A stretch of DNA of 64,000 bases from Prosthecobacter debontii. Lineage in GTDB: Bacteria > Verrucomicrobiota > Verrucomicrobiia > Verrucomicrobiales > Verrucomicrobiaceae. The DNA is taken from assembly GCA_945869675.1 (NCBI GenBank), contig CAMBPS010000001.1:23576-87575 (forward strand). The letters are read 5' to 3'. Positions 2,481 to 16,608 of this stretch are shown piece after piece. The position numbers and the translations under genes are program-made. Position 1 is the first letter of the stretch. The number at the start of each line of letters is the position of its first letter. Under the pieces are notes generated by a model. The model was not told the DNA's origin. It did no database searches and saw only the letters and a list, made by a program, of their open reading frames with translations.

Positions 2481-3149
2481 ATGTTGAAATACTTCTTCCT
2501 CAGTTACGTCTTCGTTGCGGCCATCGTAGTGGCCGCTTTCGGCACACGCGGCAGTAAGTCCGAATTGCCGCCTATTGAGATCTTCCAAGACATGGATCAT
2601 CAGGCTAAAATCAAATACCAGGCTCACAGCGACTTTTTTGCCGATGGTCTGGGCGGTCGCCAACTGGTTAAGCATACCGTGCCAATGGGATTCGAAGTGC
2701 CTGCAAAGCCTGTTTCTTCGCCAGATGCAGCGCCTCCAGACTACGGTTTCAGCAACGGGCTTGATTACTACAGCACGGGCAAGCTCGGCGATTTTTATGG
2801 TGACGGGTTGCCAGAGCAAATCGTCGCGGACAAAGCACTCCTCCAACGTGGCGAACGTCAATATGGTATTTACTGTGGCGTCTGCCACGGTGCTTCTGGT
2901 AACGGAAAGGGAGTCACCTCGAAATATGGCATTTTAGCGGCCTTCAATTTCCATCAGACGGGCTCGATGGATCCTGCCAATGCAGGCGCATACCGCGCAG
3001 ACGGAGCGATTTTTGATGTCATCTCGAATGGTAAGGGCCTCATGGGTTCTTATGGTGGTAACCTCACTGTTCGTGACCGCTGGGCCATTGTGGCCTACAT
3101 CCGCGCCCTTCAGGTAGCGGTTAAAGAAGGAAACGTTTCTGTCCAGTAA
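2481..3149 (+). CDS. actE: Alternative complex III monoheme cytochrome c subunit ActE
   Basis: DMDHQAKIKYQ matches the ActE DMxxQxKxxxQ motif; single CGVCH heme motif; distal Met in GLMGSYG; RWAIVAYIRALQ tail; directly followed by actF. Confidence 0.85.
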   Translation: MLKYFFLSYVFVAAIVVAAFGTRGSKSELPPIEIFQDMDHQAKIKYQAHSDFFADGLGGRQLVKHTVPMGFEVPAKPVSSPDAAPPDYGFSNGLDYYSTGKLGDFYGDGLPEQIVADKALLQRGERQYGIYCGVCHGASGNGKGVTSKYGILAAFNFHQTGSMDPANAGAYRADGAIFDVISNGKGLMGSYGGNLTVRDRWAIVAYIRALQVAVKEGNVSVQ

Positions 3150-3167: not shown

Positions 3168-4469
3168 ATGAGTCACCACGTCACATTCAACGATCTCCCT
3201 CAAGGCGGCGAGAAGTTTGAGCCAGCCAAAGGCAGCAAGCTCATCAATGGTCTTGGGGCCCTAGGCGCTCTCGGGCTTTTGGTTTCGATCTACCTTTTTA
3301 GCACAAATACGGATAGCTTTGCCTACTCGTGGCTTTTTGCTTTCTTTTTCTCATTCACGCTTGTTTGCGGAGGTTGTTTCTGGATTTTGCTGCACAATGC
3401 CTCAAATTCTGGTTGGGGTATTTCTCTTCGTCGTCTTTGGGAGCAACTTGCTAACATGGCGCTGCCGCTGGCCATTCTTGGTATACCTCTTTTGATCCCG
3501 GCCGTTCAAAAGCCTTTGTATGAGTGGATGGGACACCATCGTGATGCGGCTCACCACATGAGCGAGCATGTTTCCACGGTTAAAGAAGCACTACATCATG
3601 CTTCAGAGACCAATCCTCATCTGCACATTCTCGTTCAGAAGTTTGGGTATCTTAATATCACCGCTTGGTATGTTCGCTACTTTGTTTACTTTGGCATCCT
3701 AGCTCTTATTGCTAGCGTTCTGCGCGGAAAATCGGTCAAGCAGGATCTCGATGGAGATATCAAGCATACCATCAAAGCGCGGGCTTTCTGCTGTACTTGG
3801 ATGCTTTTCTTTGCCCTGACGGTGACCTTCGCGGCTGTCGACTGGCTAATGTCTCTGGATTACTCATGGTTCTCAACCATGTGGGGTGTTTACATTTTTG
3901 CTGGCTGTGCTTGGTCCTCCATGGCGTTGACCATTCTTTTGGTGACTTGGCTGCGTGGGATGGGTTACCTGCAAAAAGTGGTTTCTGAGGAGCATTACCA
4001 CATCATGGGCAAGTTCGTTTTGGCCTTTACCATCTTCTGGGCTTACATCGCCTTCAGCCAGTACTTCCTCATCTGGTATGCTAATATCACCGAAGAGACA
4101 CGGTTTTACCTGACTCGAAACACGGAAGGCTGGCGTGATGTTTCTATCTTTATTGTGGTGGGACATTTCATTGCACCCTTTGTGCTTCTCCTATCCCAGC
4201 CGCGCAAGAAAAAGCCAGCTGTGATCAGCGGGATCTGTCTTTGGATTCTTTTCATGCACATCGTCGATATCTATTGGAATGTGATTCCTGAGCGTGGACC
4301 TTCCCTCGGTCAGGGGGTTGTTATTCCTGGTGCATGGGTGGGTGATATCGTCGCTCTTTGCACCTTTGTGGGGCTCTTGGGTTTCCTTTTCCTTCGAAGC
4401 TTGGCACGTTACAGCCTGTATCCTTGCCGCGATCCTCGTCTGCTTGAGTCCGCTAATGTTGTTAACTAA
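3168..4469 (+). CDS. actF: Alternative complex III membrane subunit ActF (NrfD-like paralog)
   Basis: About 10 TM helices; motifs DWLMSLDYSWFSTMWG, FTIFWAYIAFSQYFLIWYANITEET and YWNVIP typical of ActF; follows actE. Confidence 0.88.
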   Translation: MSHHVTFNDLPQGGEKFEPAKGSKLINGLGALGALGLLVSIYLFSTNTDSFAYSWLFAFFFSFTLVCGGCFWILLHNASNSGWGISLRRLWEQLANMALPLAILGIPLLIPAVQKPLYEWMGHHRDAAHHMSEHVSTVKEALHHASETNPHLHILVQKFGYLNITAWYVRYFVYFGILALIASVLRGKSVKQDLDGDIKHTIKARAFCCTWMLFFALTVTFAAVDWLMSLDYSWFSTMWGVYIFAGCAWSSMALTILLVTWLRGMGYLQKVVSEEHYHIMGKFVLAFTIFWAYIAFSQYFLIWYANITEETRFYLTRNTEGWRDVSIFIVVGHFIAPFVLLLSQPRKKKPAVISGICLWILFMHIVDIYWNVIPERGPSLGQGVVIPGAWVGDIVALCTFVGLLGFLFLRSLARYSLYPCRDPRLLESANVVN

Positions 4470-4872: not shown

Positions 4873-6360
4873 ATGCAGACGACCTCCTCATCCGCAGATA
4901 CAGACGTTCAGGCTGACAATCTTCGCCGCGCGGCGATTGACAAGTCAGTTAAGGGCCCTGTGCTGTTCCTCTTCCTCAACGGCGCTTTTTGGTTGATGGC
5001 TTCCACCATTCTTGGTGTGCTGGCTGCCTTGAAGCTCTTTGCTCCGTCTTTTTTGGGTGACTGCCCTGTTCTTCAATACGGTCGCTTACAGCCAACCCAC
5101 TTAAATGCCCTTGTTTACGGTTGGGGTGTGCAAGCTGGTCTGGGCGTCATGCTTTGGATTATGGCTCGTCGTTCGGGGCAAGAATTGAAGAGCGGTAAAA
5201 GCGTTCTCTATGTCGCTGGTATCTTTTGGAACATAGCGGTGACACTTGGATTACTGAGTATTCTTTTTGGCGGTAGCACGTCCATCGAGTGGTTGGAAAT
5301 GCCAAAGTGGGTCTGGCCGATTATGCTTGCCGCTTTCCTTTGCTTTGCGTGGCCTATGACAACTATGTTTGCCCGTGCTTTTCGTCCCGAAGGTTTCATG
5401 GTTAGCACATGGTACATCTTGGGTGCTTGCTTTTGGTTCCCATGGATCTTCGTTACAGCGAATGTCGCCCTCCATTGCCTTCCTGGATTGGGTGCCTTCG
5501 GTGCAGGTGTTAATGCATGGTATGTTCACGCTGTGATCATGCTGTTTTTTGCTCCTGTGGCTATTGGTTCCGCTTATTACTTTATCCCCAAAATCACTGG
5601 TCAGCCTATTGCAAGTTCACAGCTCGCTCAAATGGGATTCTGGGCGTTGGCCTGCCTCGGTGGATGGACAGGAATGCAACATTACATGGGTGGACCTCTT
5701 CCTGCCTGGATGCCAGCTATTGGTTCTTTAGCTTCCGTTTTATTGCTCGTCCCGGTGGGTGTTGTGGGTCTGAATCATCACCTTACAACTCTGGGGAAGC
5801 ATCATCTCGTTGCCTCTAGTCCAACTCTTCGATTCACCTTTTTGGGAGCACTGTTCTACCCGATTTCTGGAGTGATTCTTGCTCTAATTTCCAATTTCAC
5901 TACAGGGCCGACCCTGCAATTCACCAATGCTTGGTATGGTTTCCAAATTGTGGCTGTTTATGGATTTTTCAGCATGAGTGTTTTTGGTGCCATCTATTAT
6001 ATTGTTCCTCGCTTAACAGGTTGTGAATGGCTATCAGTTCGCTTAATCCGCAACCACTTCTGGTTCTCGACCTATGGTATCGCCACTGTCGTAATCACCA
6101 GCCTTGTGGCAGGTGTGCAGCAGGGTGGGGATTTGAATCATCCTGAAATGTGGGATCAAGATTTCTATCAGTTGGTCATGAATACTCAGCCTTATATCAT
6201 CGCTCGTGCGGTTGCTTGGGGATTGATTACATGGTCCAATATTTGGTTTTTAGTTCATCTCATGCTTATGGTGGCCGGTCTCGGTCGTCGCAGTTCGGCA
6301 CCTACGCTTCTGCACCATGGTCATGATGAATCTTCTCTTCCGCACGGAGCACACGCATGA
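4873..6360 (+). CDS. cbb3-type oxidase subunit I-like (CcoN-like) protein with degenerate active site
   Basis: Colinear with CcoN motifs: YGRLQPTHLN, STSIEWLEMP, WYVHAV, YYFIPK, GPLPAW, SPTLRF, IYYIVPRL, NHFW. HH is replaced by QH and GHVH by GFQI. Confidence 0.85.
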   Translation: MQTTSSSADTDVQADNLRRAAIDKSVKGPVLFLFLNGAFWLMASTILGVLAALKLFAPSFLGDCPVLQYGRLQPTHLNALVYGWGVQAGLGVMLWIMARRSGQELKSGKSVLYVAGIFWNIAVTLGLLSILFGGSTSIEWLEMPKWVWPIMLAAFLCFAWPMTTMFARAFRPEGFMVSTWYILGACFWFPWIFVTANVALHCLPGLGAFGAGVNAWYVHAVIMLFFAPVAIGSAYYFIPKITGQPIASSQLAQMGFWALACLGGWTGMQHYMGGPLPAWMPAIGSLASVLLLVPVGVVGLNHHLTTLGKHHLVASSPTLRFTFLGALFYPISGVILALISNFTTGPTLQFTNAWYGFQIVAVYGFFSMSVFGAIYYIVPRLTGCEWLSVRLIRNHFWFSTYGIATVVITSLVAGVQQGGDLNHPEMWDQDFYQLVMNTQPYIIARAVAWGLITWSNIWFLVHLMLMVAGLGRRSSAPTLLHHGHDESSLPHGAHA

Positions 6361-7025
6361 GCAACTTCCGCACGTTCATTCTCGCACTTACTGCTAGCTT
6401 CGGTTTTCCGTGGCTTTGCCTCATCATCATTCCAGCCATCAAGTATCAGGCTTTGACGCCAGTTGCTTATGATAAAGACAAAGACGGTGTCGAGGGGTTT
6501 TATCCGCCTGCGCCTATCAATCGTCAGGGTCAATTGACCTATGCCCGTGAAGGATGTGCTCAGTGTCACACGCAGATGATACGCCCAACGCAGCTCTCTC
6601 TTGACGGCTGGCACAAAGGATGGGGTCAGGATCAAGAGGCTCGTCCCGCAGCTCCAGTGCGTTCCAATACTCTCCTGGATTATCTTGGTGAGCCATACGC
6701 TTTCTTGGGTGTTCAACGTTTGGGCCCAGATTTAACGAATTACGGCTGGCGCGCTCCATCACGTCAGGAAATGCACGTCATGCTCTATGCTCCACGCCAG
6801 CGTCATGATTGGTCGAATATGCCAGCATTCAAGAATCTCTATGAAGTGCGTCTTGCCCAAGGTCCTAAGTCTGAACTGGCCCTCAAGCTTTCCAAGCCCT
6901 TCGCTCCTGAAGTCGGCTATGAAGTGGTCCCGACTCCAGAAGCTGAGGCTTTGGTTGATTATTTGCTGTCACTTAAGAAAGATAATCCCATTCCAGGCAT
7001 CACTGCTGCCGCTGTAAAGAAGTAA
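6357..7025 (+). CDS. ccoO: cbb3-type oxidase subunit II-like monoheme cytochrome c (CcoO-like)
   Basis: YAREGCAQCHTQMIRP, GVQRLGPDL and SNMPAF match the CcoO signature; N-terminal TM helix; ATGA overlap with the ccoN-like gene. Confidence 0.85.
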   Translation: MSNFRTFILALTASFGFPWLCLIIIPAIKYQALTPVAYDKDKDGVEGFYPPAPINRQGQLTYAREGCAQCHTQMIRPTQLSLDGWHKGWGQDQEARPAAPVRSNTLLDYLGEPYAFLGVQRLGPDLTNYGWRAPSRQEMHVMLYAPRQRHDWSNMPAFKNLYEVRLAQGPKSELALKLSKPFAPEVGYEVVPTPEAEALVDYLLSLKKDNPIPGITAAAVKK

Positions 7026-7037
7026 CGCCCACCATTC

Positions 7038-7760
7038 ATGAGCGCACCCTCCAATAATTTTCAACCCGATAGCACAGATCTAGATCGCCTTCACTCTGCA
7101 GTGACGCGTGAGAAGGAAGACCTCCAGGCTGGTCGTGAACCTGCATCCATGCTTGTCATGTTCCTTGGCATGCTGGTTGCTGTGATTGCCGGTGGACAGT
7201 TCAGCGCTGTGGGAGGCAAGCAAGAATTCGGAACAAGCACAGCTTTCAATTATGAGTCAGGTGCCGATCCTCGTCCCGGTGGAGGCGCTGGTGCTTTAGC
7301 CATGGACCCATTTCAAACCGCCATGAAAAAAGGTGCAGGTGGTTACGCCGTTTGTGGTGGTTGCCATCAGGGGAGTGGTCTAGGACTTCCCGGTCAATTT
7401 CCACCTCTGGCTGGCTCTGAGTGGGTTTTAGGCGGAACTGAGCGTCTGATTCGCGTCGTCCAACACGGTCTAGTTGGTGCGATCACAGTGAAGGGACAAG
7501 GTTACAATACTCCTGGTGGTATGCAGGGTTTTGGAGCTGCCATGTCTGCAGGTGATTTCGCTAATGTGCTGACGTTCATTCGTAATAGTTGGGGCAATGA
7601 AGCTCCGATGATCACCAAGGAAATGGTCGAGAAAGTTCGCTCCACTGAGAAGCGTGGCACTCAATGGACCATGCCTGAACTTGAAACTTTCGCCAAAGTT
7701 AATGTTGAGGGCCTGATTCCCGCTGGACCTGGTGCCACAGCAGCGCCTACTGCTAAGTGA
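7038..7760 (+). CDS. Membrane-anchored monoheme class I cytochrome c
   Basis: One TM helix then YAVCGGCHQGSGLGLPGQFPPLAGSEWV, distal Met in GGMQGF, and VLTFIRNSWGN. Confidence 0.88.
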   Translation: MSAPSNNFQPDSTDLDRLHSAVTREKEDLQAGREPASMLVMFLGMLVAVIAGGQFSAVGGKQEFGTSTAFNYESGADPRPGGGAGALAMDPFQTAMKKGAGGYAVCGGCHQGSGLGLPGQFPPLAGSEWVLGGTERLIRVVQHGLVGAITVKGQGYNTPGGMQGFGAAMSAGDFANVLTFIRNSWGNEAPMITKEMVEKVRSTEKRGTQWTMPELETFAKVNVEGLIPAGPGATAAPTAK

Positions 7761-8581
7761 TTGGAGATATCATGATTTATATGACGCAGTTCATTTCTAG
7801 CAAGGTGCCATTAGTGGCCTTAGCTATGATTGCACTGCACACTATCACTGCCTGCGGAAAAATACCTGAAGCGTCTCGTGCTAATCTATTGCCAGCGATC
7901 AATATTGCTCAAAAATTAAGTCTCCAAGGCAAAGTAATTCTTTCAGGAGGCAAGCCAGCCTCGATGGGGCAGGTGATTGACGTTGGACAAAATCCTCTTT
8001 GCGCAGGCCATAGCGCTCTCACCAATCCAACCTGGAGAGTTTCTGAAGATGGCGGATTGGAGGATGTTGTCATCAGTGTTCGTCAAACGGCGCGATCAAT
8101 TAGCACTGCCAATAGTTCCCCCCTGATCAATCAAAGAAATTGTGAATTCCAGCCATTTATGACTGTAGCGCAGCCGGGTCAGACAGTGCGACTTCAGAAC
8201 AGCGACATGACCTTCCACAACATTCGTATTGTTCAGCATCAATTAGGCACTATCGCCGCAGGTGAAAATCTGGTTAATTTGGCGCAACCTGCTCGTGGTG
8301 ATGAAAATTTGCATAGCTTTGACCAACCGGGAATTTATCGCTTAGAATGTGATGTTCATCGTTGGATGCGAGCATGGGTCTATGTCCATGATGGTGTTCA
8401 TGCCGTGGCAACCTCCAAAGATGGAACGTATGAACTGAATCATGCACTGATTGATGGCGTTTACGAGGTATCAGCGTGGCATCCAATGTTTTCACAGAAG
8501 TTAACCCAAACTGTTGCCATTCGGAATGGACAGGGCAGGGCTGATTTCTCCTTTGATCTTAAAAATTCATTCAATCTTTGA
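7757..8581 (+). CDS. Putative lipoprotein with cupredoxin-like domain and C-terminal beta-sandwich; true start may be a downstream ATG
   Basis: Lipobox-like ITA-C (C33); NQRNCEFQP; His154 (TFHNI) and C198-D-V-H201-R-W-M204. Confidence 0.75.
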   Translation: MIGDIMIYMTQFISSKVPLVALAMIALHTITACGKIPEASRANLLPAINIAQKLSLQGKVILSGGKPASMGQVIDVGQNPLCAGHSALTNPTWRVSEDGGLEDVVISVRQTARSISTANSSPLINQRNCEFQPFMTVAQPGQTVRLQNSDMTFHNIRIVQHQLGTIAAGENLVNLAQPARGDENLHSFDQPGIYRLECDVHRWMRAWVYVHDGVHAVATSKDGTYELNHALIDGVYEVSAWHPMFSQKLTQTVAIRNGQGRADFSFDLKNSFNL

Positions 8582-8648: not shown

Positions 8649-10598
8649 ATGAGCGCTGCTACAATTTCCAACGACCATACCAACGATCACGGCCATGACC
8701 ATCATGAACTGAGTTTCCTCAAAAAGTACATCTGGTCGACCGATCATAAAGTCATCGGCATTCAGTATGCGGTGAGTGGGTTACTCTTCCTGCTGTTTGG
8801 ATTCTTCCTGATGATGATGATGCGTTGGAGCATCGCCTATCCAGGTCAACCTATTCCGGGATTCGGTTTCGTGACTAGCATTCCTGTGATTGGCGATTTG
8901 TTTCAGGAAATGATTGGACGCTGGGCGCCTGGTGGCGTTGTCAATGGTGAGCTATACAATATGCTAGGTGCCATGCACGGAACAATCATGGTCTTTCTCG
9001 GGATTGTGCCTCTCGGTTTTGCTGGATTCGTGAACTTTGTCATGCCTCTCCAAATTGGCACGATTGATATGGCCTTTCCTCGTCTGAACATGTGGAGTTA
9101 TTGGCTCTTCTTCGTTAGTGGTGTCATGATGTTTGCGAGTTTCTTCTTGGGAACGGGGTCAGTGCAGACTGGGTGGACGATGTATTCGCCTTTGGCATCA
9201 ACAACAGGTTTAGCTGTGACCAATGTATGGATGCATGGTCATACTTGGTGGTTGCTTGCCATGGTGTTTAATATTTCCGCATCACTTTTGGGATCAGTGA
9301 ACGTCATCACGACGATTATCAATCTGCGTGCCAAAGGTTTGACTTGGATGCGCATGCCGTTCTTCTGCTGGGCCATGTTTATCGTTTCTTTCCTGCTACT
9401 TTTGGCTTTCCCGCCTCTTGAGGTAGCTGCGCTGCTTCAGCTTATGGACCGTGTGTTTGGCGCTAGCTTCTTCTTGCCGACAGGTCTGATGGAAGGTGGG
9501 CAACATCTGGACATCGCTGGTGGTGGCAGCCCGCTGCTTTATCAGCACTTGTTCTGGTTCTTAGCTCACCCAGAGGTGTACGTCTTGATCCTGCCTGCCT
9601 TCGCGATTCTGACTGAAGTGATCCCTGCTAATACTCGTCGTCCTCTTTGGGGTTACAAAGCCATGGTGTATGCTGCTTTGACCTTGGGTTTCCTCAGTTT
9701 CCTTGTTTGGGCTCATCACATGTATCTGACGGGCATGGGCACCATGATGTCCACCTACTTCCAGATCACCACGGTTCTGATCTCCGTTCCATCCGTCATC
9801 CTACTCACGGGTCTCATGATTTCTCTCTGGGGTGGTTCCATTCGGTTTACGCCTCAGATGCTTTTCGCTTCGGCTTTCTTGCCGATGTTTGGTATCGGTG
9901 GTCTTACGGGCTTGCCTTTGGCTTTTACCTTCATCGACCTTGCTCTACATGACACCTATTACGTCATTGGACACTTCCATTACGTGGTTGCTCCTGGGAC
10001 AATCTTTGGTCTCTTCGCAGGTGTTTACCACTGGTATCCAAAAGCCACAGGGCGAATCATGAATGATTTTCTGGGCAAACTTCACTTCTGGCCATCGCTG
10101 CTGGGAATGAATATGATCTTCGCGCCGATGTTTATTCAAGGTATGGGGGGGTTCCATCGCCGCTGGTATGATGGTGGTAAATACTTCGAGCAGACTTCCA
10201 GTGCTTCCAACTGGTTTACTGAACTTAATTCCGGTTTTTTTAGTCTGTTCGGCATGGACGTGCCAAACAATCTTCTTGGGCTGAATGTCCTGATGTCAGT
10301 TGGTGCCTTCGTTCTCGCTCTGGGGCAGGTTCCTTTCATTCTCAATTTCTTCCTCAGTATTAAAGGTGGCAAAAAAGTCGAGAACGACAATCCATGGGCA
10401 GCAACGACTCTTGAGTGGGCGGCTCCGACACCTCCTCCGCATGGTAACTTTGACTTTGAGCCCATCGTCGTTCGTGGCCCTTATGAATATAGTGTTCCTG
10501 GTATGGATCAGGATTTCTTCCCGCAGTGGGAATCAGAGCCAGGTAAGCGCGCGGAGCCATCGGCTGCCCCAGCACCAGCCATTGTTGCTCATCATTGA
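8649..10598 (+). CDS. ctaD: Cytochrome c oxidase subunit I, A-family (A1-type HPEVY)
   Basis: Heme/Cu ligands all present (GAMHG, LAHPEVY, WAHHM, GHFHY); D-channel D140 (DMAFPRLN); RR pair in GFHRRW. Confidence 0.97.
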   Translation: MSAATISNDHTNDHGHDHHELSFLKKYIWSTDHKVIGIQYAVSGLLFLLFGFFLMMMMRWSIAYPGQPIPGFGFVTSIPVIGDLFQEMIGRWAPGGVVNGELYNMLGAMHGTIMVFLGIVPLGFAGFVNFVMPLQIGTIDMAFPRLNMWSYWLFFVSGVMMFASFFLGTGSVQTGWTMYSPLASTTGLAVTNVWMHGHTWWLLAMVFNISASLLGSVNVITTIINLRAKGLTWMRMPFFCWAMFIVSFLLLLAFPPLEVAALLQLMDRVFGASFFLPTGLMEGGQHLDIAGGGSPLLYQHLFWFLAHPEVYVLILPAFAILTEVIPANTRRPLWGYKAMVYAALTLGFLSFLVWAHHMYLTGMGTMMSTYFQITTVLISVPSVILLTGLMISLWGGSIRFTPQMLFASAFLPMFGIGGLTGLPLAFTFIDLALHDTYYVIGHFHYVVAPGTIFGLFAGVYHWYPKATGRIMNDFLGKLHFWPSLLGMNMIFAPMFIQGMGGFHRRWYDGGKYFEQTSSASNWFTELNSGFFSLFGMDVPNNLLGLNVLMSVGAFVLALGQVPFILNFFLSIKGGKKVENDNPWAATTLEWAAPTPPPHGNFDFEPIVVRGPYEYSVPGMDQDFFPQWESEPGKRAEPSAAPAPAIVAHH

Positions 10599-10639
10599 GA
10601 TTTAAACCCAGAGAACTGAGCTAACCGTCACTTTTCCAC

Positions 10640-12031
10640 ATGGACATTCCTTACACAGTCTCCGCCCGCCCAGATACGGGCTTGTATAACGCCAAAGTCG
10701 GCATCTGGCTTTTCCTCGCTTCTGAGGTCATGCTCTTCGGGGGGCTTTTCTCTTCCTACATCTTCTTGCGTGTTGGTGCGGACTATCCGTGGCCAGTTCA
10801 TGAGTTGAATGTGACCCTTGGTTTTATCAATACATTGGTTCTTATTGGTTCTTCCGTCACTGTGTTGCTTGCATGGGCTTCTATCAAACTCCGTAAATTT
10901 GGAGCCTACAAAGTTTACATGGCCATCACCATCCTTTGTGCCATGACCTTCATGGTCATCAAAAGCTTTGAGTATAAAGCCAAATTTGAGCATTACTCGG
11001 TTACTCTAACGGATGGCACGATCCTAACGGGTCACTTGCCGAATGGTTTTGAGATTGAATTCGGCGATGTTAAGGAGCTCAGCCTGACGATCTCAGGTAA
11101 GACATCTGCTGTCGACGCCGACCCTGTAGGTTACGTGCTCCCCTACCTCAAAGGAACCGCCCCGAAGTTCAAAACACAGGCGGGTGTTGAGATTGACTTG
11201 AACAAAGAAAGCTTCGCAGTCTTGAAAGCCGAAGTGCTTGCAGCTGCCAAAGCTAAAGCCACCAATTCTAAAGAGCTTCCGTCAACCACGATCAAGTTAG
11301 TTGCGGCATCTCCGATGACATTCTCGGTTCCAATGTCCAAGTTCTTAGCCCGCCCAGCGCTAGACGCCAAATCGTTTACCTTTCGTGATGGCACTTCAGT
11401 CGAGGGTAAAATTATCAATGATAAGATGACTCTTGAAGTCGATGGACTGGATGTCCGCGGCACACCTGACAAAGAGAAGTCTTTGGCGTTTAACGAGCAT
11501 TATCTCGGAACTGCCTGGAAGAATGCTTTCATTCATCAGAGAGATGAAGCCATCGCTGTATTCAAAAAGGAATTCGATGACGGTAAAGGCGGCACCTCTC
11601 GTGATCCTAAAAAGAGTGCAACTCAGCAAAAGAAGCTCTTTTACGTTCACATTCACTCAGCCACTCCTGAAGCCCATACCGAAGAAGGAGGCGCGCACAA
11701 AACTGAGGCTCATGCACCAGTTGAAGAGCATGGCTCGGCTCACGCGGGTCATCATCCTGAAGTGAAGCTGGAGCGAAAAGATGTTCAGTTCTTCTCTAAC
11801 TTCACACCAAAGCTGAATAGCTACTACGCCATCTATTTCACTCTCACTGGGCTGCATGGGCTACATGTGATCGCAGGTGCTTTAGTATTGGCTTACTTCT
11901 TGGTTTTTGATGGTCGCCGTCTGCGTGAAGACCCTGAGCACATGGCCAACCGTGTCGAAGTCGGTGGCCTCTTCTGGCACTTTGTAGATTTGGTCTGGAT
12001 CTTCCTGTTCCCACTCTTGTATCTCTTATAA
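10640..12031 (+). CDS. ctaE: Cytochrome c oxidase subunit III with a large soluble insertion
   Basis: [36 protein letters not shown] and [19 protein letters not shown], separated by a ~270-aa hydrophilic insert. Confidence 0.92.
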
Positions 12032-12055: not shown

Positions 12056-12400
12056 ATGGCTGATAGCCCTGAAGAAATTTACAAATCCATCCGCAAGATT
12101 AAGCTGATCGGCTTGGTGCTTGCTGTTTTCACCGTGCTCACCGTTGGACTTTCTTATGTAGAGCTACCTACCCATAGCTTGAATATGATGGTCGGCATGC
12201 TCCTAGCAACCATCAAGGCAGCCTTGGTCGCTTTGATTTTCATGCATTTAAATCACGAAAAAGCGTTGGTTTATAAAATCCTCGCTTTCACGGTTGCTTT
12301 CGCTGTCGCTTTATTTGTTCTTTTTTACCTCAGTAACTCTGAAGGCCTGATTGATGAGGGCTTTGAGAATTCTACTGCTATCATCGAGTCTCAGGAGTAG
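12056..12400 (+). CDS. ctaF: Cytochrome c oxidase subunit IV (CtaF-like)
   Basis: Three TM helices with LTVLTV and KAALVALIFMHL motifs; follows subunit III. Confidence 0.85.
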   Translation: MADSPEEIYKSIRKIKLIGLVLAVFTVLTVGLSYVELPTHSLNMMVGMLLATIKAALVALIFMHLNHEKALVYKILAFTVAFAVALFVLFYLSNSEGLIDEGFENSTAIIESQE

Positions 12401-12429: not shown

Positions 12430-12636
12430 ATGTCACTGAAACACTTCCACTACGTTTTTCTGTTTTTTGCAGTTCTCTGCGATGGCGGTTTCTGGTTGTG
12501 GACGCGTCTTCAGCCAAGTGTCTCTGCTGAACTCGGGATAGGCATTTTGGGCTCGATCGCTGGCTGGACTAGTCTTGTCCTCGTTGCTTACAGCGTTTGG
12601 TATCTTTCGAAAAAATCGAAAACGATCATCGTCTGA
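12430..12636 (+). CDS. Small two-TM membrane protein of unknown function in the oxidase operon
   Basis: 68 aa with two hydrophobic helices, MSLKHFHYVF N-terminus and Lys-rich C-terminus; co-oriented within the operon. Confidence 0.6.
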   Translation: MSLKHFHYVFLFFAVLCDGGFWLWTRLQPSVSAELGIGILGSIAGWTSLVLVAYSVWYLSKKSKTIIV

Positions 12637-12672
12637 GCCATTTCCCATCTTCAATCGTTCTCTCATTAATCT

Positions 12673-12846
12673 ATGCTGACTCTCGCCTGCGCTACTTGCA
12701 AAGCTGATCCAAACAGTGTCATCGCTCAGGCGCAAGACATTGCTGTTTTGGTGATGCTGGCGTTTCTGGTTTTAGGCATGAGTTTTGTGGGATTGATCGT
12801 CTGGAACTTTGTCCGCAAACAGCAGAAGGCTGCCGTAACCTTTTAA
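12673..12846 (+). CDS. 57-aa CxxC plus single-TM protein (absent from the ORF track)
   Basis: Translated by hand: MLTLACATCKADPNSVIAQAQDIAVLVMLAFLVLGMSFVGLIVWNFVRKQQKAAVTF*. It fills the gap before ctaC. Confidence 0.7.
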   Translation: MLTLACATCKADPNSVIAQAQDIAVLVMLAFLVLGMSFVGLIVWNFVRKQQKAAVTF

Positions 12847-12878: not shown

Positions 12879-13670
12879 ATGAGTATTTCAGACATCAACG
12901 TTTGGCTTGGTATGACGCAGAACGCTTCAGAGCATGGAGGTCTTGTGGACCACATGCTTGGTTTTGTTCACTGGTTCATGTTGGTTCTTTTCATTGGATG
13001 GTCCACCTTCTTAGCAATCGCATTTTATAAGTTTCGGGCCACCAAGAATGCCAAAGCTGATTACCATGGCGTTCGCGGTCATGCGACGACACACATCGAA
13101 ATCGGTGTTTGTATTGTGGAAGCCATTCTGCTTCTCGGTTTCGCATTCCCGCTATGGCACCATCAAGCCGATGAGTTCCCAACTGGCTCAGATACTGTGA
13201 AGATTCGCGCCATGGGGGAGAAGTTTCTCTGGAATTTCCAGTATTCGGGTAACGATAAGATGCTTAGCACCTGGGATCCACGCGCCATTTCTCAATCCAA
13301 TCAAACGGGTCGCGAACTGACTGATCCAAATGGTAAGGATGATTTTGTAAATCCGGGAACCATGAAGCTGCCCTTGGGGCGTCCCGTCATCATTGATGTT
13401 ACCAGTAAAGACGTAATTCACAACTTGGCTCTCGTTCCGATGCGCGCCGCTCAAGATGCCTGCCCTGGCGTGAAAGCGCACATGTGGTTTAAGCCAGTGA
13501 AGACGGGTAGTTGGGACATCATTTGTGGTCAACTTTGTGGCCCTGGTCATGCCCAGATGAAAGCCATGCTTGAAGTGGTTGAAACTGCTGAGTTTGACGA
13601 ATGGTCTAAGGAACAATCTAACAGTGCTGCGGTGAAGAGTGCAGCACCCGCTCCTCTGGCAGTTCGCTAA
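12879..13670 (+). CDS. ctaC: Cytochrome c oxidase subunit II (CuA), without fused cytochrome c
   Basis: Two TM helices; EKFLWNFQY aromatic loop; DVIH and CGQLCGPGHAQM CuA ligands. Confidence 0.95.
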   Translation: MSISDINVWLGMTQNASEHGGLVDHMLGFVHWFMLVLFIGWSTFLAIAFYKFRATKNAKADYHGVRGHATTHIEIGVCIVEAILLLGFAFPLWHHQADEFPTGSDTVKIRAMGEKFLWNFQYSGNDKMLSTWDPRAISQSNQTGRELTDPNGKDDFVNPGTMKLPLGRPVIIDVTSKDVIHNLALVPMRAAQDACPGVKAHMWFKPVKTGSWDIICGQLCGPGHAQMKAMLEVVETAEFDEWSKEQSNSAAVKSAAPAPLAVR

Positions 13671-13754: not shown

Positions 13755-14843
13755 ATGCAGATTTTCCATTGGTTTTCTCGTTTTACCCTTCTTGTGGGTC
13801 TTGTGCTCATTTGGTGGGGCGCTGCGGTGACGACCGAAGATGTCGGGTTGGCTGTTCCTGATTGGCCGCTTGCTTTTGGAAAAATCAATCCTGAGGGCTG
13901 GATGAAGGTGCCAGCTTTGTTTCTCGAACATGGTCACCGCTGGATTGCTACGACCATTGGTTTTTTGGTTTTGGGCATGTATTTCTGGCAGTTTTCGCGA
14001 TGCAAACCGAGATTGATCGAAGCTGCTGGTATTATCCTTATTGGGTGCGGCTATTTGGTTTTGATTTTCAAAGGCTTCCTCGGTCTGGCTATGGTCATCG
14101 TCGTGATGAGTTTATTATGGTTGATCATGAATTGGATTGGTCAGCGCTGGAGTCTGCTGCGTGGGCTGACGACCTTGGCTCTTTTTTTGGTGATCATTCA
14201 GGCTTCTCTCGGTGGTCTTCGGGTTTTGAAAATGTCTGATCCGTATGGCATTAGTCACGGCACTCTAGGGCAGCTGTTTTTTTGTTTGCTGGTTTTCATT
14301 TCCTTTGCCTCGTCTAGAACGTGGCATTCAGAATCGTTGGTGATTCAGAAAAATTGCCAGTCTGCGCGAGCTTGGAGTTTGATTCTCTTTTTGGCTGTCT
14401 TCGGTCAACTCATCATTGGGGCGACGTTGAGGCATACGCAGCGCATGCATTTGGCCGCGAACGATATTTTGACCACGAAGGGCCAGCTTTTCCCGCCAAT
14501 GGATCCTGCGGATGTGTTTGTGCTGCACCTGCACAAGTATTGGGGGTTCTCGGTCGCCTTACTTGTTCTCGTAGTGGCTTGGAAATCTCGTTCTTGGCTG
14601 GGCCGGGTGCCGCGTTTGCGGTGGATTTCTCCTGCACTCATGATTATGCCGATTAACCAAGTCGTTTTGGGGATTTATGTGGTTCTGACCGGCAAAAGCT
14701 TCTGGGTCACCAATCTGCATGTATTGAATGGCCTTGGTTTGCTGGTGCTGACTTTTTTACTGGCCGTCAGCGTCTGGGCTTCGACCGCCGGACTTGGATT
14801 GAATGAGCAGACAAAGGCTGACAAACCCCTGTCCCCAACCTAG
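13755..14843 (+). CDS. ctaA: Heme A synthase (COX15/CtaA)
   Basis: VPDWP, EHGHR, SHGTLGQ, HLHK and NLHV conserved His motifs; adjacent to ctaB. Confidence 0.88.
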   Translation: MQIFHWFSRFTLLVGLVLIWWGAAVTTEDVGLAVPDWPLAFGKINPEGWMKVPALFLEHGHRWIATTIGFLVLGMYFWQFSRCKPRLIEAAGIILIGCGYLVLIFKGFLGLAMVIVVMSLLWLIMNWIGQRWSLLRGLTTLALFLVIIQASLGGLRVLKMSDPYGISHGTLGQLFFCLLVFISFASSRTWHSESLVIQKNCQSARAWSLILFLAVFGQLIIGATLRHTQRMHLAANDILTTKGQLFPPMDPADVFVLHLHKYWGFSVALLVLVVAWKSRSWLGRVPRLRWISPALMIMPINQVVLGIYVVLTGKSFWVTNLHVLNGLGLLVLTFLLAVSVWASTAGLGLNEQTKADKPLSPT

Positions 14844-14852
14844 TTTCACCTC

Positions 14853-15821
14853 ATGACCAAAGATGATTCTACTGCGTCGGCTTCCGCTCTACCATTGCCA
14901 CCAGCTGTGAGTGGAGAGCCCGTGGCCTTTACCCTGAATGATTTGCTGACGCTGACGAAGTTCCGGCTCAGCGCTTTGGTAATCGTGACGACTTTTGTGG
15001 CGTTCTGGTTGAGGGCTGGGACACAAATGAATTTCTGGCTGCTCCTGCACACCATCATTGGTAGTACCTTAGCAGCCTTTGGTGCAGCTGTGTTTAATCA
15101 GCTGATGGAGATCGAGCCAGACTCTCGTATGAGCCGAACGGCAGATCGCCCCCTGCCTGCTGGTCGCATCAGTCCTTCGTTGGCTTTTGGGTTGGGATGG
15201 CTGCTTAGCGCCATGGGGTTGATTCATTTGGTGCATCGAGTCAATATGGAGGCTGCTGCTTTGACGGCGCTGACACTAGCGACTTATCTCTTCATCTACA
15301 CGCCTCTGAAAAAGCAGTCCGCTGTGAATACCTTGGTCGGAGCTGTTTCGGGTGCTTTACCGCCATTGATTGGTTGGGCTGGTGCTGCCGGTTTCTCGGA
15401 AAAAACAGAAGCATACTTTCGCTGGAGTCTTCTCTGGGAGCCTGGTGCTATTTATCTATTCATGCTTTTGTTCCTCTGGCAGTTACCGCATTTCCTGGCG
15501 ATCAACTGGATGTATCGAGATGAGTATCGCCGAGGTGGATTTGTCATGCTGGCTAATGATGATGAACTAGGTGCTCGCACTTCACGCCATGCTCTGGCCT
15601 GGGCTGTCGCTATGCTGTTGCTGATGTTTTATCCTGTTGCCTTTGGGCTGGTGAAGCTGTGGCTATTTCTTCCTGTGGCACTGCTTTTAAATGTGTGGCT
15701 TTGTCAGCGGGCCTTAGTGTTTCAAAAGAATCCTGAACGGGCGACTGCGCGTCGGCTCTTTTTTGGAACGCTGATTTATCTTCCAGTTATTTTATTGATC
15801 ACGGCCTTGGCCTGGAAGTGA
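14853..15821 (+). CDS. ctaB: Protoheme IX farnesyltransferase (heme O synthase)
   Basis: NQLMEIEPDSRMSRTADRPLPAGR, YTPLKK, GALPPLIGW, WQLPHF. Confidence 0.96.
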   Translation: MTKDDSTASASALPLPPAVSGEPVAFTLNDLLTLTKFRLSALVIVTTFVAFWLRAGTQMNFWLLLHTIIGSTLAAFGAAVFNQLMEIEPDSRMSRTADRPLPAGRISPSLAFGLGWLLSAMGLIHLVHRVNMEAAALTALTLATYLFIYTPLKKQSAVNTLVGAVSGALPPLIGWAGAAGFSEKTEAYFRWSLLWEPGAIYLFMLLFLWQLPHFLAINWMYRDEYRRGGFVMLANDDELGARTSRHALAWAVAMLLLMFYPVAFGLVKLWLFLPVALLLNVWLCQRALVFQKNPERATARRLFFGTLIYLPVILLITALAWK

Positions 15822-15855
15822 TCGTCGATAGATTGAACCAACTCCTTTTTGACCT

Positions 15856-16608
15856 ATGTCTACAGATCCAATTCCAGAGGCTCCGCGCCGCATCAATCCT
15901 CTGACCTTATGGGTGCCGATTATCTTCATTGTTCTCGGGGTGGTAGTTTTCTACAATTATCTCATCTACACCTCCATGGAGGCTAAGAAGAACAAAGAAA
16001 CCCTGACGGATGGTCAAGGCACCACACGCAGTTCCGAGCGTCCGGCTTACCTGGGGCGATTGGAGAAGGATTTGGAGCTTGTTGAGCGCAGCGGTAAGAC
16101 CGTTCATTTGGCCGATTTGCGCGGAAAGATCATTATTGCTTCCTGGGTCTTTACGCGTTGCCCGCGTGGTTGTGCTGGGGTGATCGCCAAATTAAAAAAG
16201 CTATACGCTGAACTGGGCGACAATCCGAACGTGCAGTTTATCTCCTTTACGCTGGACCCGGACGATACGCCCGAGATGATGAAAGCCTGGGCCAGCGGTG
16301 TGGGTATCAAGGATACTGACAACTGGTGGTTTCTCAATGGTCCGAAGGATGTGGTGCGCAAATACATGACCTTTTCTTTTCAATTTCGTCCGGTGCAGGA
16401 TCTCCCGGAGGCGGACCGCCTGACACCTGATGATAAATACATCCATGATTTACGCGTTGCACTAGTCGATCATGCTGGGCATGTGCGTGGGCTGCATGAC
16501 ATTATGAATGCGGATCCCCAGTTCCAAGAATACTGGGATAAACAAATCCGCACCGATCTGAACTACCTCCTCGAAGAACAAAAAAAAGCCAAAGACAAGA
16601 CACCATGA
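15856..16608 (+). CDS. sco: SCO/SenC family copper chaperone
   Basis: N-terminal TM helix, FTRCPRGC (CxxxC), SFTLDPDDT and conserved His in YIHD. Confidence 0.92.
   Translation: MSTDPIPEAPRRINPLTLWVPIIFIVLGVVVFYNYLIYTSMEAKKNKETLTDGQGTTRSSERPAYLGRLEKDLELVERSGKTVHLADLRGKIIIASWVFTRCPRGCAGVIAKLKKLYAELGDNPNVQFISFTLDPDDTPEMMKAWASGVGIKDTDNWWFLNGPKDVVRKYMTFSFQFRPVQDLPEADRLTPDDKYIHDLRVALVDHAGHVRGLHDIMNADPQFQEYWDKQIRTDLNYLLEEQKKAKDKTP

Follow-up and report, generated by a model that had tools for sequence, protein, structure and literature searches.

A natural A1-type cytochrome c oxidase without the K-channel lysine in a freshwater Verrucomicrobiaceae bacterium, and a candidate buried glutamate in its subunit II

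Introduction

The K-channel lysine of A-family haem-copper oxidases is held in textbooks to be essential: K362M and K319 mutants barely turn over, and their catalytic site cannot be reduced. Lysine-free routes are known from other families, the K-analogue channel of ba3 oxidase (T. thermophilus) and the KC-channel of cbb3 oxidases being built of Ser, Thr, Tyr and water and starting at a glutamate of the second subunit; the ba3 enzymes (B family) have no D-channel, and carry Thr, Ser and Tyr at positions 362, 359 and 299 of the Rhodobacter sphaeroides enzyme. The subject of this report is the coxI gene, and the operon around it, in a 64,000-nt stretch of the Prosthecobacter debontii assembly GCA_945869675.1 (contig CAMBPS010000001.1, positions 23,576-87,575 of the forward strand), hereafter the window. 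The operon, from a freshwater member of the Verrucomicrobiaceae, encodes a complete cytochrome c oxidase of the aa3 type (A1) that naturally lacks the K-channel lysine. Nucleotide positions are those of the window (1-64,000), and Rs and Pd denote R. sphaeroides and P. denitrificans numbering.

The classical type A K-channel is defined by a lysine (Rs K362/Pd K354), a threonine (T359/T351), a serine (S299/S291) and the tyrosine Tyr-I, and the lysine is a required part of that definition (Pereira/Sousa, PMC3084760). Many lysine-less A-family oxidases were tabulated by Degli Esposti et al. 2021 (PMC8239418), who covered bacteria and archaea, and in a 2020 preprint, and so the lysine-less enzyme is an already described phenomenon, of which the oxidase of the window is a further member. 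From their COX1/COX2 K-channel residues, many A-family enzymes are classed in PMC8239418 as 'KC-channel', 'hybrid' or 'modified'. The A1 'KC-channel/hybrid' group comprises Elusimicrobia, Candidatus Calescamantes and Methylacidiphilaceae (Methylacidiphilum), while the lysine-less acidophilic iron oxidisers (Acidithiobacillus rus-operon aa3, Acidimicrobium, Sulfobacillus) are classed as 'modified' (PMC8239418).

Materials and Methods

Equivalences to the R. sphaeroides aa3 oxidase were taken from phmmer searches against PDB chains, in which 1m56_A was the best match; the numbering of the 1M56 row was checked on D132, E286, Y288, H333/H334, T359, K362 and H419/H421, and reproduced the standard numbering. 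The close set of subunit I sequences consisted of the best 120 CoxI homologues (66-90% identity), and the distant set of 15 loci (L001-L015, 52-61% identity) from a scan of one genome per species. Lysine loss was surveyed in the best 150 cluster representatives at 50% identity, 112 of which cover the catalytic core. The tree was built by neighbour-joining with 200 bootstraps after the K-channel columns had been taken out. Acidic residues were counted in the interior of transmembrane helix 2 (TM2) of 18 lysine-less and 60 lysine-containing CoxII sequences.

Subunit I and the missing lysine

The gene and the residues that matter to the argument are as follows; residue equivalences are from the alignment.

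8649..10598, + strand: coxI, subunit I of an A1-type haem-copper oxidase, 649 amino acids, with HPEVY; TIGR02891 E = 1.6e-159, 1m56_A E = 3.6e-110; ligands and D-channel intact
9573..9581, + strand: Glu309-Val-Tyr311 of HPEVY, the D-channel glutamate and the cross-link tyrosine
9612..9617, + strand: Thr322-Glu323 at Rs S299-H300, lower K-path, helix VI
9657..9659, + strand: Lys337 at Rs L314, where helix VII begins on the N-side, close to the mouth of the K-path
9696..9698, + strand: Ser350 at Rs G327, helix VII, a 'KC-channel' position in the published scheme (alignment and published table columns)
9765..9855, + strand: helix VIII segment flagged in the first-pass annotation, TTVLISVPSVILLTGLMISLWGG; gap-free alignment to R. 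sphaeroides helix VIII
9783..9785, + strand: Ser379 at Rs A356, a signature of lysine-less lineages, adding a hydroxyl to the T375-S379-S382 face of helix VIII
9792..9794, + strand: Ser382 at Rs T359, hydroxyl kept, invariant in the clade
9801..9803, + strand: Leu385, codon CTA, at Rs K362/Pd K354 (alignment to 1M56 and codon reading)

The first-pass annotation, made from the sequence alone, had stated that helix VIII aligns to R. sphaeroides without gaps, with Leu (L385, CTA at 9801-9803) at the K362 position and Ser at T359, and all of this was borne out by the phmmer alignment to 1M56 (E = 3.6e-110). The CoxI stretch from yfqitt to gsirf runs without gaps against 1m56_A and gives L385 = K362, S382 = T359, T322 = S299 and E323 = H300. 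The same annotation described the D-channel and the metal ligands as intact, which they are. The D-channel residues D140, N129, N147, N218 and E309 were read from their codons, and with a Ser at Rs S201 the set tested (Rs D132, N121, N139, N207, S201) is complete. All six histidine ligands are kept (H110, H444, H442, H307, H356 and H357, corresponding to Rs H102, H421, H419, H284, H333 and H334), H307 of HPEVY and H356/H357 at CuB and H110, H442 and H444 at the haems, and the His and Asp of the Mg site are present. The motif AHPEVY, with E309 and Y311, places the enzyme in A1 and not A2. The canonical K-channel set is broken by Leu385; the changes of Thr to Ser382 and of Ser to Thr322 are conservative, and Tyr311 is kept. 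Nor does the enzyme fit the B family (ba3), as it has a D-channel, Leu at Rs362 and Thr at Rs299.

Overall, the oxidase shares about 40% identity over 590 residues with the canonical A1 aa3 enzymes (R. sphaeroides 1M56, P. denitrificans 1AR1/3HB3), and has in common with them the HPEVY Glu and cross-link Tyr, the full D-channel, the six His, the Mg-site His/Asp, a CuA subunit II with the entry Glu, and subunits III and IV. It differs from them in CoxI (K362 to Leu, T359 to Ser, A356 to Ser, G327 to Ser and W366 to Leu), in CoxII (W104 and T105 lost, P108 to Glu), and in gene order, which is coxI-III-IV-II in place of coxII-I-III.

Distribution and phylogeny of lysine-less relatives

Every one of the best 120 homologues (120/120) has Leu at the K362 position and Ser at the T359 position; the named members are Verrucomicrobiota, Prosthecobacter and Phragmitibacter flavus. 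Ile or Val takes the K362 position in 15/15 of the distant loci, which come from four phyla (hosts: Verrucomicrobiae, Spartobacteria, Vicinamibacterales and other Acidobacteriota, Neomarinimicrobiota, Thermoanaerobaculia and Hydrogenedentota). The lysine-less group that holds the window's CoxI was monophyletic in 200/200 neighbour-joining bootstraps. Thus CoxI of the window lies within a deep, multi-phylum lineage of A-family oxidases lacking the K-channel lysine. Among the 112 surveyed representatives, 78 have Lys at the K362 position, 21 a hydrophobic residue and 13 Gln, Glu, His or Thr, counts that are skewed to relatives of the query and give no frequency estimate for the A family. At least five lysine-less clades, each with 100% bootstrap support, do not group together, and clades A and B were joined in 9% of replicates. 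In some of the others, Rs359 and Rs362 are both hydrophobic (F/I/M) and CoxII has no buried acid.

No lysine aligns at the K362 site and the relatives do not keep one, and the proposal of the first-pass annotation, that this is a naturally occurring A-family variant whose K-channel is rewired or absent, stands: the substitution is fixed in a multi-phylum clade with 100% bootstrap support, and the operon is complete. It is barely credible that the reading is an artefact or the gene that of a non-oxidase, whether through sequencing error, misalignment, a decaying gene or a role with nitric oxide or peroxide. No direct support for this was seen, although the adjoining ccoN-like gene shows that haem-copper homologues in the cluster can lose function. 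Sequencing error and misalignment are ruled out by the gap-free alignment (E = 1e-110) and by fixation of the substitution in more than 135 homologues; in addition, the ligands, Tyr311 and CuA site are intact and haem A and copper assembly genes adjoin. The operon is also probably transcribed: contigs of lake metatranscriptomes, 90-99% identical to it, cover coxI (including 9455-10755), coxIII and coxII. From its sequence, the enzyme is predicted to reduce O2 with proton pumping.

The lineage is abundant in fresh water and soil and is present in cultured aerobes (Prosthecobacter, Phragmitibacter), and the window sequence itself was found in lake, river and drinking-water metagenomes. Many A1-type CoxI proteins of the clade carry the NCBI name 'cbb3-type cytochrome c oxidase subunit I', a systematic mis-annotation, and classifiers that require the lysine will mis-sort the enzymes of the clade.

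Some 'orphan' COX1 genes nest in the lysine-less clade of the window: P0125 (L081 7001-9199, from a metagenome-assembled genome of Acidobacteriota), P0131 (L082 7001-9076) and P0126. They keep the metal ligands, the Tyr and Glu286, and have lost the D-channel Asp and Asn as well; in L081 and L082 there is no coxII or coxIII nearby, and all that precedes the orphan gene is a homologue of the 274-aa cupredoxin-like protein described below. The nearest lysine-containing relative, P0128, was considered as a transitional form and set aside, its contig being short and without coxII. A separate A-family group has Gln at the K362 position (P0171, P0183, P0191, P0225, P0226, P0230, P0237, P0238 and P0269); most of these are about 840 aa long, with CoxI and CoxIII fused, and 7/9 have Glu at Rs N207. 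Glu, His or Thr occupies the position in P0199, P0258, P0236 and P0245.

Subunit I residues that change with the lysine

Other positions of subunit I change together with the lysine. Ser occurs at Rs356 in 93% of lysine-less but 1% of lysine-containing sequences, and at Rs327 in 90% and 13%, respectively, while W366 is lost in the lysine-less sequences, another signature change. Across 23 diverse lysine-less sequences Ser350, Ser379 and Thr375 are invariant, as is Ser382 in the clade of the window. Thr375, Ser379 and Ser382, spaced i, i+4 and i+7, therefore share one face of helix VIII. Position Rs327 in helix VII is, by the column definitions of the table in PMC8239418, the site of the cross-linked Tyr in cbb3 oxidases.

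The lysine-less sequences are biased towards a basic residue at Rs314, the position of Lys337 (K/R in 26/29), while Lys is present in 9/79 lysine-containing sequences, where Leu and Ile are commonest. This bias favours the idea that Lys337, at the start of helix VII, functionally fills the K362 site and that the channel is in effect conventional. Such an arrangement is nonetheless very improbable. Rs314 marks the N-side edge of helix VII, with the CuB histidines about 19 residues above it and the depth of K362 about 10 residues (15 Å) above it, too far for a lysine side chain, and none of the Lys residues in the transmembrane helices of the clade is invariant. As its side chain cannot reach the site, Lys337 more likely lies in the mouth, near subunit II Glu74; it was rejected as the relocated lysine, being too shallow at the membrane boundary, and was kept solely as a possible channel-mouth residue. 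Glu323 (Rs H300) was rejected as well: E/D at this position is common in lysine-containing relatives too, so that Thr322-Glu323 is not a specific compensator. No new ionisable residue was found in the membrane part of subunit I in the lysine-less sequences.

A buried carboxylate in subunit II

The remaining candidate for the lysine's replacement lies in subunit II.

12879..13670, + strand: coxII, subunit II, with the CuA site H181...C216xxxC220xxxH224xxM227 and no cytochrome c domain, downstream of coxI-III-IV
13098..13100, + strand: CoxII Glu74, the K-path entry glutamate (Rs II-E101/Pd II-E78/bovine II-E62), from alignment
13119..13121, + strand: CoxII Glu81, buried carboxylate in TM2 and candidate lysine replacement, from alignment

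TM2 of the window's CoxII reads H-I-E74-I-G-V-C-I-V-E81-A-I-L-L-L-G-F-A-F-P-L-W, with Glu81 seven residues inward of Glu74. The corresponding residue is Pro (Rs II-P108) in R. sphaeroides, P. denitrificans, the bovine enzyme and most lysine-containing loci, and is acidic in none of them. A Glu seven residues after the entry position is found in the window, in the 14 loci of L001-L015 with coxII (L013 has none), in Prosthecobacter sp. and in Phragmitibacter flavus, and the basal clade member P0127 has the motif D...E. The buried Glu is conserved down to about 31% CoxII identity, and more strictly than the entry Glu, which is lost in L014 and L015 while the buried one is kept. More generally, an acid in the middle of TM2 was present in 18/18 lysine-less but 0/60 lysine-containing CoxII sequences. 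Two other lysine-less clades have their own versions, clade B an Asp in 'PHxLxLVCD' and clade C a Glu at +16, which suggests a recurrent solution. We found no mention of this covariation between lysine loss and a mid-helix acid of subunit II in the papers cataloguing lysine-less oxidases.

In published structural and simulation work, helix 2 of subunit II is described as a wall of the K-channel and of its mouth cavity, together with helices VII/VIII of subunit I (PMC9335260, PMC10095113) or helices VIII-X (PMC6115622). Glu81 and L385/K362 are each about 10 residues away from the N-side end of their helices (TM2 and helix VIII, respectively), and the two should therefore lie at similar depth. 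No new basic residue of the membrane that could pair with Glu81 was found. Buried carboxylates without a partner are a typical feature of proton carriers.

Proposed route of the K-path protons

The pattern as a whole leans towards a K-channel that is rewired and not absent, because the entry Glu is kept, a second buried Glu lies on the same CoxII helix, and Ser is invariant at Rs 327, 356 and 359. That subunit II carboxylates together with subunit I serines form a rebuilt K-path in a functional oxidase is a proposal to which the sequences lend, in our estimate, about an even chance. Protons of the reductive half would still enter at the K-site, by a differently built path. They would be taken up at the conserved entry Glu74 of subunit II, perhaps with help from Lys337 of subunit I at the mouth, and then be passed to a second carboxylate, Glu81, which is buried in the membrane on the same face of that helix 2. 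From there, water and a stripe of hydroxyls (Ser382, Ser379 and Thr375 of helix VIII, Ser350 of helix VII) would lead to the cross-linked Tyr311. The ionisable carrier would in this way have shifted from a lysine of subunit I to a glutamate of subunit II, and the upper path would look like the K-analogue channels without lysine in the B and C families, while the D-channel, unchanged, would carry the pumped and oxidative-phase protons. The narrower proposition, that the K-path carrier moved between subunits, from the helix VIII Lys to CoxII Glu81, exchanging a cationic for an anionic/neutral shuttle in an otherwise canonical A1 enzyme, is more tentative.

Several points weigh against the rebuilt path. 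Clades D and E (P0172, P0218 and P0243) have a CoxII TM2 without a mid-helix acid, and the buried acid was accordingly rejected as a universal trait of lysine-less oxidases; it occurs in 3/5 of the lysine-less clades sampled, and few independent events lie behind the covariation. From Glu74 to Pro91, TM2 is three residues shorter than from E101 to P121 in R. sphaeroides, so that Glu81 corresponds to II-P108 when the helix is anchored on the N-side and to about II-I111 when it is anchored on the P-side, and the exact equivalence is uncertain. The presumed closeness of Glu81 to the L385 site comes from helix register, depth counting and descriptions in the literature. Finally, no biochemical characterisation of any enzyme of the window's clade was found in the literature.

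The main rival is an enzyme without a K-path, in which protons for chemistry and for pumping alike, those of the reductive phase among them, all pass through the D-channel and Glu309, and Glu81 and the serines are purely structural. The complete D-channel of CoxI would allow this, and several other lysine-less clades, with hydrophobic residues at both Rs359 and Rs362 and no buried acid in CoxII, are consistent with it. We consider it rather unlikely for the window's oxidase, as the K-path face is not hydrophobic here: Ser382, Ser379, Thr375 and Ser350 are invariant in the clade, the entry Glu is mostly kept, and the unpaired buried Glu is conserved to about 31% identity in CoxII. Retention of a functionless charged residue in a membrane helix would be unlikely.

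A different alternative keeps the K-path but leaves Glu81 out of it. The protons would then follow a serine/water K-analogue path, as in a cbb3-like 'KC' channel, and Glu81 would contact small subunits, lipid or a cation. In its favour, Ser at Rs327 and Rs359 occupies 'KC' or shared positions, and the residue pattern matches the A1 'KC-channel/hybrid' rows of PMC8239418. That group and the window's clade have in common K354 (Pd) to I/L, T351 to S, a Ser at the cbb3 Tyr position and a COX2 E78 that is often kept; the Elusimicrobia rows, at 'Y A/S I S C E G I S S', are nearly identical to the 'Y A/S/T I/L S A/C/G E/D G M/L A/S S' of the window's clade. The window itself has Y T L S G E / G M A S / E, with the shared Ser (T351) and the Ser at the cbb3 Tyr position in place, the other three C-specific positions apolar, and A/S at the third in close relatives. 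Judging by residue pattern, the two may belong to one clade; the hosts differ, those of the window's clade being Verrucomicrobiales, Acidobacteriota, Marinimicrobia and Hydrogenedentota. Two small membrane open reading frames (ORFs) found with coxII in the clade could be partners of Glu81, yet they were detected in part of the clade only. Of the C-family-specific positions, four in number (Rs 312, 316, 319 and 327, reading G, M, A and S in the window), a single one is polar, and Glu81 is conserved more strictly than the entry Glu, all of which makes a path that bypasses Glu81 distinctly unlikely. The table of PMC8239418 scores COX2 E78 alone, without a second buried Glu.

The acidophile oxidases resemble that of the window in being natural enzymes with K354 replaced by a hydrophobic residue and the D-channel kept. 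They differ in having two extra N-terminal helices, a non-ionisable residue at COX2 E78, and L/M at S291, whereas the window's enzyme keeps the entry Glu and polar residues. By analogy, it most plausibly works like the ba3 K-analogue or cbb3 KC-channel, from whose owners it is set apart by being an A-family oxidase with a D-channel, by Leu and not the ba3 Thr at Rs362, and by apolar residues at three of the four C-specific positions. We know of no described counterpart, in the ba3 or cbb3 families, of the mid-membrane Glu of subunit II.

A lysine-less A1 lineage is a natural experiment, in which some other arrangement must supply both the protons of the reductive phase and the electrostatic tuning that is ascribed to the lysine. 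The paired change in CoxII turns this general question into a specific test, one that can be made directly because cultured hosts exist.

Operon and neighbouring genes

The other genes of the region are listed in order.

2484-3128: ActE-like cytochrome c (alternative complex III gene)
3171-4460: ActF-like (alternative complex III gene)
4873-6360, + strand: ccoN-like
6357-7025: ccoO-like
7038-7760: cytochrome c
7757-8581, + strand: 274-aa cupredoxin-like protein; weak Pfam match to Copper-bind, E = 0.003
10640..12031, + strand: coxIII, 463 aa, with an insert of about 260 aa between conserved COX3 ends
12056..12400, + strand: coxIV, caa3-type subunit IV family (COX4_pro)
12430..12846, + strand: two small conserved membrane ORFs between coxIV and coxII, of 68 aa (12430-12636) and 57 aa (12673-12846)
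13755..16608, + strand: ctaA (haem A synthase), ctaB (haem O synthase, UbiA family) and SCO1/SenC, for cofactor and CuA assembly

The order in the window is ActE-like, ActF-like, ccoN-like, ccoO-like, cytochrome c, the 274-aa cupredoxin-like gene, coxI, coxIII and coxIV, and then the two small membrane ORFs, coxII, ctaA, ctaB, SCO1 and DUF420. The same cluster is present in Prosthecobacter sp. and Phragmitibacter flavus, where it is led by ActB-D. With a CuA subunit II that has the entry Glu, subunit III, COX4_pro, CtaA and CtaB all present, the operon is that of a complete aa3 oxidase and its assembly genes. The order coxI-III-IV-II was rejected as a trait that defines the clade, since in the basal member P0127, which still has the D...E motif, the order is coxII-coxI.

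The insert of about 260 aa in CoxIII is of unassigned fold; in verrucomicrobial relatives the ORFs are likewise long (358-537 aa), and in acidobacterial and Marinimicrobia relatives CoxIII has about 200 aa. The two small ORFs are conserved in Prosthecobacter and Phragmitibacter, with weaker homologues before or overlapping the start of coxII in several of L001-L012, and may encode extra subunits or assembly factors. The first, of 68 aa, has a conserved 'FHxVFLxFAxxCDxGFW' helix with a buried Asp.

In the 274-aa protein, type-1-copper-like motifs (xHN ... CD[VI]HxWM) are followed by a CarboxypepD_reg-like domain, and the protein may be an electron donor or accessory protein. Its homologues adjoin lysine-less and lysine-containing oxidase operons in many phyla, and it was rejected as a partner specific to the clade.

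The ccoN-like gene (4873-6360) has lost most of its catalytic residues: the cross-link Tyr is Gly, both haem His of helix X are replaced, by Phe and Ile, and the CuB 'HH' has become QH in the window, and QK and NK in the orthologues of Prosthecobacter and Phragmitibacter. Its score is 134 bits, where the ccoN cut-off is 583. By sequence, it looks like a ligand-less, non-catalytic oxidase homologue that is conserved between the alternative complex III and aa3 genes.

Upstream of the ActE-like gene, where relatives have ActB, ActC and ActD, there is a gene of the Tex family (4-2217). ActC and ActD had no match within the 64-kb window (ActB was not searched for), and with the Tex gene in their place the alternative complex III cluster is therefore split or truncated in this organism.

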